Positions 66 through 4,104 of a stretch of DNA of 4,187 nucleotides are shown piece after piece. Made by a program: the position numbers and the translations under genes. Below the pieces are notes generated by a model that worked only from the letters and a program-made list of their open reading frames with translations, did no database searches and was not told the DNA's origin. Source of the DNA: a virus (Duplodnaviria; Heunggongvirae; Uroviricota; Caudoviricetes); the IMG/VR virus record IMGVR_UViG_2645727945_000016, one strand, 5' to 3'. How positions within the stretch are numbered: position 1 is the first letter of the stretch; the number at the start of each line of letters is the position of its first letter.

Positions 66-575
<510 letters not shown>

Positions 576-592
576 ATATATATATGTATTTT

Positions 593-666
593 CTCTGTTA
601 AGCGTGAGCTACGTGAAAAATAATTTTTGGTGTGGGTATTAACTTTGCTTTATTCACGTAGAACAC
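593..666. repeat. R1: 74-bp intergenic element, direct-repeat copy of R2, with an internal 9-bp inverted repeat
   Basis: Bases 593..639 (ctctgttaagcgtgagctacgtgaaaaataatttttggtgtgggtat) match 2869..2913 with one substitution and a 2-nt indel. A divergent 13-nt core follows, then ttcacgtagaacac (653..666) matching 2929..2942 at 13 of 14 positions. Internal arms ctacgtgaa (609..617) and ttcacgtag (653..661) are reverse complements. It lies between the tape measure stop (674) and the 149-aa gene. Confidence 0.85.
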
Positions 667-673
667 CGTTAAA

Positions 674-2854
674 TCAATCATCTTCTGGGAATGATGAACT
701 TAATAACGTAGCTTCTGCATATTGGTCGTAGATATTACTGCTAAAGGTCATAAAGCTGGTTTCATCTGGTTTAATGGCAACTTCACCACCAAGTGAAACT
801 TTCACTGGTTCCTGAATACGCTTACTCAAAGCACTAATTTCATCTCTTAGATTTTGGATGTCAGTGCTCGTTAATGATGCATCTTGTTTCATGGTAATCA
901 ATTCTGGATGATTGAATCTTGCAATATTCATTGTGGCATTGTTAAACAATTCACCCATTGAACTAAAAATTCTACTCCATCCTTCGTTAATCACATTCGG
1001 TTTATTAGGGTCACCAGAATACACAGGATTAAAGTCACTACCCACACCTACCCCAGATGGATGCATATTAGCGTTTTTGACTACTTCCTGATTCATAAAA
1101 TCCAGTGCTTTCTTCAATGCATATAAACCAAGAGTGACACCTCTGATTTGTGGAATCATTGAAGCTAATGCTAACGCTGTTTCATAACCGTCATCAGCAT
1201 AACCAATTGCAAGAGCACTACCTACACCACCAGCTACACATTTCAGTTTTTCACCACCTTTACCAGTAGCTACCTGACCAGCCACCTGATTAGCTCTTGT
1301 ACCTAACGTTGTGATTGCTCTTGTCAGGTTCATAACCCCTGTAGTAGCACTGAATAGTGTCTTTGCAGATAACGCTATAGCAAGACCTTTGACGAAGTTG
1401 ATAAATCCATCACCGACTTCATCAAGTAGCTTTCGCTTAGTGTCATCAAGACTGTAATAGAACTTCTTAGTCTGTAAAATCCAGCCTTCAAGGTGATTGT
1501 TAAAGATACGGATGTCATCTACACCAGCTTTAAGCATGTCGATAAGTCCACCGATAGCATCACCAGCGATAGAAGAACTCATACCCATTTCACTAAGCAG
1601 GTTACTCAGGCTGGATAAGAAGCCGTTTAACTCATCCTGTGAACCTGAGAAGATTTTAACCATCGTATCATCCCAGTTGTTTGCTAACTTACCTAAAGCT
1701 GTCTGAGTGCTCTTAGCGACTTCAGCCCAACCACCCGCTTTATCAATCATCAAGCCCATCTGTTTAGCGACTTTAGGGAGAGTATCACTACTTAAAATCT
1801 TCCCGTCTTTCATCGCTTTATCAAGCTCTGTAGCAGTCATACCCAATGCTTCAGCGAATAGCTTAAATGCACCAGCCATACGGTCACCTAACTGCCCACG
1901 TAATTCTTCAGCCTGAATCTTGCCCTTAGAAGCCATTTGCTCAAAAGCCTTCAGAATGCCGTTTAGCTCATCATTACTAAGCCCCATTAAGCGACTCATA
2001 GCCGTTGCATTACCAAATAGCTCCTGTGTCTGTTCCTGTGACATAGAACCCTGAGCACCTGCTGCAAACTTAGCGTAGCTTGATAGCCCTTCAGAGATAT
2101 TAAGACCTGTCTTGTCAGCCAGTCCCCTGATAAATGTTTCAGCTTCAGATGCTTTATCACCAAGTACAAACTTAGCGGCTCTCTGTGCGGAATCTCGTTT
2201 AAGACCTGCATTCATGATGGCCTTGTAAGCGTTAAGAGCACCCATCACAGAGTAAAATGCACCAGATAACTTGATTGCATTGCTTGCAAGATTATTAAAT
2301 GCGTCGCTTGTATTGTTAATGCTGGTGGCCTTTGTCTGTGACCTGAGTTTATTCAACGTTTCACGAAGAGATTGATTTAATTTTGCAAGTTCAGCGTTAA
2401 ACTTTTCACTTCCAATATTGCCAGCTTTACTACTTAATGCGTAAAACTGTGCTTTAAACATTTTAGCCATCAGCGGATTAATATCACCAAGCTTAGACAT
2501 ATTCACACTATGCGCTGCTGTGATTGCTCTGTTGCCGCTAATTCGTGGCTGTCTTGGTTGTTTTGGAGGATTAATAGCGTCATTAACCTGACTTGTGAAA
2601 CGGAAAACTTTAGTATTTCTTGCTCTCTGTTCAATCTTGTCAAAGGTCTTATTAAACTTCCTTTCAAGTTGCCCTAAAGAACTTGTCAGATTGCTGTCAA
2701 GTTGCTTGGTATCGACCTTAAACGCTCTATTCAAATTACGTTCAATTCTTTGTGCTGACTGCAAAGCTGCCTTTTCAACTCTTTGCAAGCCCTTAATAAC
2801 GTTCTCGCTGAAGCCTAGCTCAACGATAAAACTATCAACTTTAAATTGTGCCAT
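674..2854 (-). CDS. Phage tail tape measure protein (726 aa)
   Basis: 2181-nt ORF with AGGTGA (2869..2864) 9 nt upstream of the ATG at 2854 and an in-frame TGA two codons upstream, so this is the first possible start. The translation is long, largely alpha-helical and Ala/Gly/Ser/Leu-rich. The central stretch ELNGILKAFEQMASKGKIQAEELRGQLGDRMAGAFKLFAEALGMTATELDKAMKDGK resembles the conserved tape-measure domain as I recall it, and there are Gly-rich hydrophobic segments near the C-terminus (GGVGSALAIGYADDGYETALALASMIPQIRGVTLGLYAL) typical of this family. Family assignment is from recollection, not a search. Confidence 0.85.
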   Translation of the reverse strand: MAQFKVDSFIVELGFSENVIKGLQRVEKAALQSAQRIERNLNRAFKVDTKQLDSNLTSSLGQLERKFNKTFDKIEQRARNTKVFRFTSQVNDAINPPKQPRQPRISGNRAITAAHSVNMSKLGDINPLMAKMFKAQFYALSSKAGNIGSEKFNAELAKLNQSLRETLNKLRSQTKATSINNTSDAFNNLASNAIKLSGAFYSVMGALNAYKAIMNAGLKRDSAQRAAKFVLGDKASEAETFIRGLADKTGLNISEGLSSYAKFAAGAQGSMSQEQTQELFGNATAMSRLMGLSNDELNGILKAFEQMASKGKIQAEELRGQLGDRMAGAFKLFAEALGMTATELDKAMKDGKILSSDTLPKVAKQMGLMIDKAGGWAEVAKSTQTALGKLANNWDDTMVKIFSGSQDELNGFLSSLSNLLSEMGMSSSIAGDAIGGLIDMLKAGVDDIRIFNNHLEGWILQTKKFYYSLDDTKRKLLDEVGDGFINFVKGLAIALSAKTLFSATTGVMNLTRAITTLGTRANQVAGQVATGKGGEKLKCVAGGVGSALAIGYADDGYETALALASMIPQIRGVTLGLYALKKALDFMNQEVVKNANMHPSGVGVGSDFNPVYSGDPNKPNVINEGWSRIFSSMGELFNNATMNIARFNHPELITMKQDASLTSTDIQNLRDEISALSKRIQEPVKVSLGGEVAIKPDETSFMTFSSNIYDQYAEATLLSSSFPEDD

Positions 2855-2868
2855 TGTTCATATTTCAC

Positions 2869-2942
2869 CTCTGTTAAGCGTGAGCTACGTAAAAAATAAT
2901 TTTTGGTGGGTATATCTGTTCAGAAGATTTCACGTAGCACAC
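2869..2942. repeat. R2: 74-bp intergenic element, direct-repeat copy of R1, immediately upstream of the tape measure RBS
   Basis: See R1. Internal arms gctacgt (2884..2890) and acgtagc (2932..2938) are reverse complements. In minus-strand RNA the stem extends through a U-G wobble (2891/2931) and three A-U pairs. The minus-strand 3' end of the element (CGCTTAACAGAG) runs directly into the GGTGA Shine-Dalgarno of the tape measure gene. Confidence 0.85.
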
Positions 2943-2946
2943 ATAC

Positions 2947-2988
2947 AAAAAAGGGAGAAACTACCGATATCACTCGATAATCTCTCCC
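2947..2988 (-). terminator. Rho-independent terminator on the minus strand between the 67-aa gene and R2
   Basis: Minus-strand RNA reads GGGAGAGAUUAUCGA-GUGAUA-UCGGUAGUUUCUCCC followed by UUUUUU (plus-strand a-run 2947..2952). The stem is 15 bp in the minus transcript, three of them G-U wobbles; on the plus-strand transcript those positions would be A-C mismatches, so the structure is strand-specific. It starts 48 nt after the TAA stop at 3038..3036. Confidence 0.75.
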
Positions 2989-3035
2989 CGTATTATAGAT
3001 TCGATAGAACCTATCTCATATACCCAACCAATTCT

Positions 3036-3239
3036 TTATCTAATCAGATAATAATTACCATCTTCACCGACAATCTGACAATCACTTGGTAATTTATCAA
3101 GACACCATTTAGCGATTCTTCTGATTCTGCTATTTTGCCTAGAGGTGGATGATTTGATTCGTTTTGGTTTGTTGGGTTGTTCTTTCAATCTCTCGCTAAT
3201 TGCTTTAATAAGTTCATAGCGTTCCGTTAAATCAAACAT
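3036..3239 (-). CDS. Hypothetical small basic protein (67 aa)
   Basis: ATG at 3239 preceded by AAGGAGGTGA with a 5-nt spacer. An in-frame TGA lies immediately upstream of the ATG, so it is not a frameshift extension of the 236-aa gene. The central segment is Lys/Arg-rich (KPKRIKSSTSRQNSRIRRIAKW), suggesting nucleic-acid binding. A terminator follows. Function unknown. Confidence 0.65.
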   Translation of the reverse strand: MFDLTERYELIKAISERLKEQPNKPKRIKSSTSRQNSRIRRIAKWCLDKLPSDCQIVGEDGNYYLIR

Positions 3240-3997: not shown

Positions 3998-4075
3998 TTT
4001 CTTAATAGAGCACCTTCGACGACAATACACTTAGAAGATGACTTAACGATTTATTAAAGATGCTCTATTAAGAAA
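3998..4075. promoter_or_regulatory. Perfect 15-bp inverted repeat pair separated by 48 bp, in the 5' region of the 236-aa gene
   Basis: tttcttaatagagca (3998..4012) is the exact reverse complement of tgctctattaagaaa (4061..4075). The proximal arm ends about 10 nt upstream of the RBS of the 236-aa gene. Confidence 0.4.
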
Positions 4076-4104
4076 AGCCCTAAACATAATCTGTGAAGGG
4101 CTTT
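4067..4104 (-). terminator. Weak candidate terminator on the minus strand, for a gene lying upstream beyond the window end
   Basis: aaagccct (4074..4081) and agggcttt (4097..4104) are reverse complements with a 15-nt loop. The minus-strand RNA continues AGGGCUUUUCUUAAU. The stem has only about 4 G-C pairs. All three minus-strand frames have stops at 4150..4175, consistent with an upstream gene ending inside the window. Confidence 0.3.

Follow-up and report, generated by a model that had tools for sequence, protein, structure and literature searches.

R1 and R2, inverted-repeat elements beside the tail genes of an Escherichia coli island, as putative mRNA-leader hairpins of a wider 53-nt family

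Genes, signals and host island

The window, meaning the whole stretch of 4,187 nucleotides that was analysed, carries all of its genes on the minus strand, and each of two inverted-repeat elements, R1 (593..666, minus strand) and R2 (2869..2942, minus strand), lies directly upstream of a start codon. The gene enclosed by them encodes a tape-measure protein of 726 aa (674..2854, minus strand; PF20155 TMP_3, phrog_4036), with R2 upstream and R1 downstream of it. R2 stands 14 nt upstream of the tape-measure ATG at 2854, between a terminator-like hairpin and a ribosome-binding site. R1 is placed between two co-directional genes; it begins 8 nt past the tape-measure stop, and about 77 nt separate its end from the likely start (ATG 515) of a Dit-like gene (distal tail or 'baseplate'), of which the window holds the 5' part (93..515, minus strand) and whose family, PF21821 Dit_like, was matched on the intact homologue in locus L018. 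Counted from the end of the 53-nt core of each element (609-661 in R1, 2885-2937 in R2), the first ORF start is reached after 72 nt in R1 and 30 nt in R2.

The terminator-like hairpin has 16 pairs followed by a T-run (2952..2989, minus strand), ends 9 nt before R2, and is present in all variants of the chromosomal island described below, including those without R2. Directly upstream of it is a sigma-70 promoter-like site, ATGAGA-16-TATAAT with 10 of 12 matches (2992..3019, minus strand); since its near-consensus -10 abuts the terminator hairpin, a transcript from this site would open with the terminator. In islands L009 and L011 the same promoter-like module is found after the terminator. The intergenic region around 2952-3019 is built of shuffled small modules. 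A 67-aa ORF upstream of the terminator and R2 (3036..3239, minus strand) and a 236-aa minus-strand ORF upstream of the tape-measure gene matched no family; the latter is preceded by a non-coding stretch of 550 nt that holds hairpin-forming inverted repeats, one of 3998-4016 with 4057-4075 (95% complementarity) and one of AAGCCCT with AGGGCTT at about 4076-4104. A second hairpin, AAAGGCTT...AAGCCTTT (530..579, minus strand), lies between R1 and the Dit-like ribosome-binding site, and its 5' arm repeats the ribosome-binding-site context ATCAAAGG; in sequence, the arm ATCAAAGGCTT repeats the context ATCAAAGGAG. The 3' arm of this hairpin could pair with either copy, so a translational switch would be possible.

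At its left edge the window, from 1 to about 92, is the end of an IS21-family element, ISEc12, with 96-100% identity to many plasmid and chromosomal copies, which interrupts the Dit-like gene at about position 92; because the insertion sequence truncates that gene, the 3' end of the 156-aa ORF at 66..536 is an artefact of fusion. Over the Dit-like stretch 93-491 the DNA identity to Felix O1-like phages is 96%. Other island variants show about 71% DNA identity across 93-491, and the tape-measure protein has only about 33% amino-acid identity to that of Felix O1; together, these values suggest a recent exchange between the island and infecting phages. Despite the 96% identity of the Dit-like part, the window does not come from a Felix O1-like phage itself: its match, at 90-94% identity, is an E. 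coli chromosomal island that measures about 10.6 kb and is located between tonB and yciI (L018:18083-28685).

This island contains a large serine recombinase, the two tail genes, an HNH endonuclease and six small proteins without a family, together with 1.9-3.3 kb of non-coding DNA in which iterons (short direct repeats) GGTCGGTTAAGAA occur three times; some variants carry a small resolvase/invertase as an additional gene. In the L018 copy there are no capsid genes, no terminase genes and no PADLOC match, and comparison of island proteins with PADLOC, NCBIfam and Pfam gave nothing beyond Dit_like, TMP_3, HNH_3 and Resolvase. The island looks like a phage satellite or a tail-interference element; a literature search on the island and on a Felix O1 satellite found nothing relevant. 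Among species-representative genomes it was found only in Escherichia albertii. Of 5426 complete E. coli genomes, 447 contain R, always on the chromosome and at 1-5 places per genome, every one of them inside this island, which has two copies of R; the island-carrying strain FORC_069 matches R2 at 100%. This confinement sets R apart from genome-wide repeats of the REP/ERIC type.

It was also considered whether R might be a Felix O1-type promoter copied along with the tail genes, which was rejected: no intergenic space surrounds the tape-measure gene in Felix O1-like phages, and R found no match in 50,697 phage records and is absent from Felix O1 too. Similarly, motifs of R are not enriched in Felix O1 except CTTAACAG, and that in a separate non-coding region. 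This 8-mer has 8 copies in the island (L018:18000-29400; 0.35 expected), one in 33 kb of flanking host DNA and 21 in Felix O1 (2.6 expected), of which 7 cluster (L019, 12800-13700) within 1.6 kb of non-coding DNA that separates convergent gene blocks. The end of R itself is GCTTAACAGAG.

R1 and R2 and their variants

On the plus strand R1 reads CTACGTGAA at 609-617 and TTCACGTAG at 653-661, and R2 reads CTACGTAAA at 2885-2893 and TTCACGTAG at 2929-2937. On the minus strand, which is the coding strand here, both copies therefore have the form CTACGTGAA, 35 nt, TTYACGTAG. In R1 the 5' arm (653-661) and the 3' arm (609-617, TTCACGTAG) pair by Watson-Crick pairs throughout, while in R2 the 5' arm (2929-2937, CTACGTGAA) and the 3' arm (2885-2893, TTTACGTAG) include one G-U. 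The arms and the spacing of about 35 nt that the earlier note had described are present in both copies, and the tenth base that it gave to the second arm is found in R2 only, the corresponding base of R1 being a662 (TTCACGTAGA, not an ending in GC).

The variable base is C in R1 and T in R2 on the coding strand (g615 and a2891 on the plus strand), opposite an invariant G; that these bases face c655 and c2931 was confirmed in the window sequence. The further statement that this was the sole substitution in the conserved block does not hold, as the two copies also differ by GGTGTGGGTAT vs GGTGGGTATAT, and the part of the loop that adjoins the arm at 653-661 or 2929-2937 is unrelated in sequence between R1 and R2. 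Nor is the G/A difference a compensatory change or covariation, as had been proposed: it is one-sided, turning G-C into G-U on the minus strand and C-G into C-A on the plus strand, and it represents wobble tolerance, not a compensatory double change.

By chance alone, 4.2 kb should hold about one 9-bp inverted repeat within 60 nt. When the minus-strand RNA was folded in silico, as the earlier note had suggested, R1 gave z = -3.6 and R2 z = -4.4, with 0 of 200 shuffles as good, compared with z values of only -1.1 (R1) and -1.2 (R2) for the plus-strand RNA. The fold of both elements consists of one long-range stem of 9-11 pairs plus 3 around an unstructured, open loop of 33-35 nt, and the stems survive folding in context. 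The repeat is not due to chance, since it is found in both R copies, folds beyond expectation as minus-strand RNA, recurs in the 447 genomes and has its arms in unrelated mobile elements; the R1/R2 inverted repeat is a genuine, selected feature. As for the minus-strand RNA structure inferred in the earlier note, the strand of the genes, the position before start codons and the coding-strand wobble agree with it, whereas the single R1/R2 change and the invariant core give it no help.

Among 28 distinct island copies of R that were aligned, the 8-bp arm core is invariant, and the C/T position corresponding to g615/a2891 toggles between otherwise identical copies. Within the island family, C/T is therefore a recurrent one-sided transition, which fits an RNA stem and is not evidence for one. 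Uncompensated stem breaks, which had been named beforehand as speaking against a structure, do occur in part, at terminal pairs: three distinct copies have ACGTACAAC in place of ACGTAGCTC, and GTGAT replaces GTGAA in two others, which were found at six loci. Of the left part of the loop there are three unrelated versions, which are freely combined with several versions of the right part and are found at either position, and one R copy lacks the 5' arm. Just before the 3' arm, a TAnnnT (TATTTT, TAGAAT or TAGATT) is kept in island copies with a decayed inner stem. Several islands that are otherwise intact have no R2, and in them the terminator abuts the ribosome-binding site, so R2 is dispensable for having a tape-measure gene. 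Scans of metagenome and viral collections with 15-base patterns returned mostly chance matches and seven new R copies, all of them metagenomic. In one R2-type copy (L004:4459-4612), a hairpin-forming insertion of 24 nt, TGATTCGGATAAGAATTATCCTCA, follows the 5' arm and lengthens the loop from 35 to about 59 nt.

The wider 53-nt family, P1 and cre

Scanning of IMG/VR with arm patterns revealed the same arms with the same 53-nt span in contigs of 37-63% G+C. R1 and R2 are diverged, partly decayed copies of this widespread palindromic element. The family is defined by CTACGTGA and TYRCGTAG exactly 37 nt apart, a description that fits both R1 and R2, and the two align without gaps to 34 other members. 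The coding-strand consensus is (GCG)CTACGTGAAATCTG, about 25 nt, CAGATTTYRCGTAGCG; the span is constant at 53 nt across the family, and the loop sequences are unrelated. Members outside the island have stems that reach 14-19 perfect pairs (GCGCTACGTGAAATCTG / CAGATTTCACGTAGCGC), and in many members the arms are extended to TGCGCTACG...CGTAGCGCA, with ends TG...CA. At the inner stem AAATCTG / CAGATTT, most pairs of R1 and R2 are mismatched, and pairs 15-19 are broken in most island copies.

Many members belong to P1 relatives of 80-95 kb with loxP or lox-like sites, C1 operators, and cre, c1 and pacB homologues, and family members precede the start codons of cre, cra and other phage genes by 9-70 nt. 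The other downstream genes, at 9-41 nt, include ORFs of 273, 526 and 487 aa and a 353-aa ORF between loxP and cra; from their N-terminal sequences alone, the 273-aa and 526-aa ORFs look like terminase subunits. The extra ORF of 353-356 aa is without a Pfam match (L300:11271-12600 and L342, Cronobacter phage JK004), and the order in some P1-like phage-plasmids is loxP, palindromic element, ORF, cra, cre. The Cre proteins encoded next to the invariant arms share 36-56% mutual identity (most 36-44%). At divergent cre/c1 regions, the element is found in both orientations relative to the neighbouring genes.

In phage P1 the element precedes cra, a small gene ahead of cre, by 33-35 nt. Its sequence in the cra/cre upstream region (X03453) is GCGCTACGTAAAATCTG, 25 nt, CAGATTTCGCGTAG(C), with the same 53-nt span as R; the P1 loop box ACACCGCC resembles the R loop box ATACCCACC, and the following flank CACTTAGC...AGAGGTGAAAAATG resembles the R2 flank CACGCTTAACAGAGGTGAAATATG. 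Unlike R, the P1 element, going by its loop box, is inverted relative to its downstream gene; its coding strand shows one U-G and one A-C, and it overlaps a putative -10. In the GenBank record, the depositors' putative pR1 -10 (TAAAAT) falls inside the 5' arm, which would accordingly be missing from a transcript begun at pR1. Most P1-clade elements have the coding-strand A-C mismatch, and the same base creates TAAAAT. The loops show a resemblance to boxA of P1 ParB (ATTTCAC / GTGAAAT) and a boxB-like CGCCA; P1's own element has degenerate ParB-type boxes, and the island has no ParB.

Comparison of the window and six related loci with Rfam, with E values up to 1 admitted, gave no family at the element. 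A tblastn comparison of the island proteins with the P1-like loci fetched gave no shared homologue and no shared regulator. No description of the P1 palindrome or of the wider element was found in the papers searched, among which the original 1986 paper and the P1 genome paper were not. Cre itself was considered as the reader and rejected, because each Cre clade has its own lox site beside the same arms. In a comparison with the P1 late promoter, which the P1 protein Lpa activates, the region before pacA in P1 showed no CTACGTGAA; the arms of R are of 9 bp and 35 nt apart. Finally, a 59-nt stretch, CTACGTGA...TTACGTAG, is shared by about 70 environmental viral contigs of 4-14 kb (L232-L341, IMG/VR); it varies mainly every third base and so looks like coding sequence, and it was set aside as an unrelated, chance pattern match.

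Candidate readings of the element

For the analysis of pairing, 36 distinct elements, most of them retrieved by patterns requiring the arms, were oriented by the downstream ORF and aligned without gaps. Over a stem of 19 pairs, 80.6% of cells pair on the coding strand vs 75.9% on the opposite strand. The two variable core pairs are, on the coding strand, UA in 28 and UG in 8 elements, and GC in 14, GU in 18 and AC in 4; on the opposite strand the same positions are mismatched in 8 and 18 of the 36. Two elements, L440 and L459, have the C-rich loop box inverted and keep their wobble on the coding strand, so the wobble follows the gene and not the loop. With clades as the unit, the strand bias comes to about 8 to 2 and lacks significance on its own. 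The covariation for which the earlier note had looked to related elements was seen at three inner pairs, which show compensatory changes among the 57 distinct sequences of the Cre-like loci described below, and not in the outer core: the inner types are TA 32/AT 13; GC 20/AT 4, this pair also with GU 7 and AC 21; and GC 18/AT 8, this one also with GU 21. The core CTACG/CGTAG never varies in the elements collected, which is owed partly to pattern scans that required the arms, and being invariant it is uninformative about pairing. RNAalifold reported 8 pairs with a covariation term of -0.2 and no pair changed on both sides.

Because most members had been retrieved by arm patterns, Cre-like loci were also collected by protein only, giving 159 loci with 57 distinct sequences. 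T[CT][AG]CGTAG is present upstream of cre in 148 of the 159 loci (93%), and on the coding strand of the 57 sequences there are 131 G-U cells vs 60 A-C cells. In the P1 clade, three extra arm changes all keep coding-strand pairing, as U-G in L503 and in L527/L547 and as A-U in L469, the last of which completes a series of G-C, G-U and A-U. The wobble that follows the gene, the compensatory inner types and these P1-clade changes favour a base-paired structure of the coding strand. Other clades depart from it: the L587 group, a large Cre clade, has lost the outer half of the 5' arm, and the Cre clade of L553, L558 and L579 has three adjacent uncompensated mismatches, and in both the 3' arm and its T-rich flank are intact.

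Judged from sequence, R is most likely a hairpin in an mRNA leader, its functional role being putative. R would be transcribed within the minus-strand mRNA, and the stem-loop would form in vivo 14-77 nt upstream of the tape-measure (R2) and Dit-like (R1) starts, where it may act post-transcriptionally on processing, stability or translation control of the downstream cistron; the 3' arm (CGTAGCG and the T-rich flank) would also be read sequence-specifically by a conserved, probably host-encoded, factor. This combined reading, a leader hairpin with an added sequence-specific constraint in its 3' half, is adopted tentatively, with a confidence that falls a little short of even.

The persistence of the 3' arm where the 5' arm is lost can also be explained at the level of DNA, by a palindrome whose arms are the operator of a probably host-encoded protein, and/or whose 3' arm and T-rich flank form a promoter core; in detail, TAnnnT would end 3 nt before CGTAG, transcription would start within CGTAG (about 2885-2889 in R2 and 609-613 in R1), and the 5' arm would lie near -45, untranscribed. 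The -10-like TAnnnT before the 3' arm has A at -8 in 83 of 87 sequences and T at -4 and -3 in 87 of 87, which fits the critical -10 bases, and it outlasts the inner stem in the island; the P1 element is inside the region annotated as promoter pR1. The invariance of the arms over the whole G+C range of the contigs and beside diverged Cre proteins with differing lox sites, the constant spacing in the family and the occurrence in both orientations at divergent cre/c1 regions would suit such a site as well. In addition, all variable core sites are in the 3' arm, so a wobble bias is possible without any RNA. However, a sigma-70 scan finds no promoter in R1 or R2 and there is no conserved -35, R1 is within an operon, 8 nt past a stop codon, and the island and the fetched P1-like loci share no candidate DNA-binding protein. 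The conserved positions, moreover, come as complementary pairs, three of them with compensatory changes, and the two variable core pairs show no transversions in the 36 elements; L577 has one, a T-T at the G-Y pair. A DNA-level site is regarded as the serious rival of the leader hairpin, at a somewhat lower probability. By-eye comparison with sigma-32, sigma-54, sigma-E, the MotA box, CRP, TyrR and LacI-family half-sites found none that fitted.

The presence or absence of R2 at the same site between islands raises another alternative, that of a mobile or recombination-prone module, a MITE-like cassette or relic with little function of its own that was duplicated around the tape-measure gene. 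The extended arms with TG...CA ends in many members, the loop halves found in all combinations and at either position, which suggest frequent exchange between copies, and the existence of one copy with a 24-nt insertion and another that is truncated are in keeping with it. Against this, no target-site duplication is visible at any insertion, each genome has just 1-5 copies, all in this island, and identical arms with unrelated interiors are the opposite of a recently amplified MITE; furthermore, the motif is kept at the same place relative to cre in 93% of Cre-like loci, which indicates selection rather than mobility. A mobile module is accordingly thought improbable, and classification as a MITE was rejected: inverted repeats are present, but filled and empty sites differ by no duplication, and the copies are few and confined to one island.

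It is also conceivable that R is a recombination site for the serine recombinases of the island and that R1 and R2, as direct repeats, let a resolvase excise or exchange the tape-measure cassette. The island does have a large serine recombinase and in some variants a small resolvase/invertase, and the two direct repeats flank a gene whose centre is highly variable between islands, down to 48-58% amino-acid identity. Nevertheless, the points between which tape-measure sequences diverge fall within the gene, near 947 and 2358, and not at R, for which reason a conserved linker at cassette boundaries was rejected. The AT-rich near-palindrome of the loop is not conserved among R variants, P1-like phages with other recombinases have a single copy of the element, and the L228 island keeps both R copies without the small resolvase. 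This explanation is regarded as highly improbable.

To return to the leader hairpin, a broader form of it is possible, in which we place less confidence than in the hairpin with a constrained 3' half: a conserved 53-nt leader stem-loop would be common to P1-family phage-plasmids, other phage genes and the Felix O1-related satellite-like island, and a host factor would read it in coding-strand RNA and set downstream expression, including that of native Cre. If R is a functional leader hairpin, it would be a portable expression signal common to very different mobile elements, used before cre by P1-type plasmid prophages and before Felix O1-like tail genes by the E. coli island, which would imply a shared reader, probably one that the host encodes. 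R would also be a new structured motif for the catalogue, since no Rfam family matches, and it would bear on how Cre stays at a low level in its natural setting. Beside the island's tape-measure and Dit-like genes there is no conserved non-coding signal other than R1 and R2, which makes them an obvious handle on when the satellite-like island expresses its tail proteins.

Several known classes of element were compared with R. An intrinsic (Rho-independent) terminator was rejected, as none is found in R1 or R2: such terminators have a G+C-rich stem, a loop of 3-8 nt and then a T-run, whereas R has a loop of 33-35 nt and, after the stem, CTCACGC instead of a T-run. The lambda nut site combines a boxA CGCTCTTTA-like sequence with a 15-nt boxB hairpin that has a 5-nt loop; R, with its loop of 33-35 nt, was rejected as a site of this type, and CACGCTTAACAG after the stem resembles boxA only with a 2-nt gap. 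Correia elements of Neisseria are of 100-150 bp, occur in hundreds of copies and have TA target duplications; elements of this type have terminal inverted repeats and promoter-like ends, lie upstream of genes, are co-transcribed, form hairpins and vary in presence by site. R is similarly short, bounded by inverted repeats, located upstream of genes and present at some sites only, but the span is 53 nt, each mobile element carries 1-2 of them, target duplications are absent and the interiors are unrelated. The PeSL cassettes of T4-type phages consist of a terminator-like stem-loop and an early sigma-70 promoter and mark recombination junctions. R is likewise a repeated regulatory cassette whose direct repeats flank single genes in a phage-derived cluster; unlike PeSL, it has no promoter detected, and the mosaic junctions are inside the tape-measure gene. 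The intercistronic RNase III sites of T7-like phages have a helix of about 20 bp, an internal loop and a small terminal loop. RNase III, which the earlier note had suggested, cleaves within a helix of about two turns, and none of the present observations speaks for this enzyme in particular. R resembles them as a conserved hairpin between phage cistrons and differs from them in its 9-11 pairs plus 3 with a loop of 33-35 nt, while the P1-like members of the family reach 18-19 pairs.
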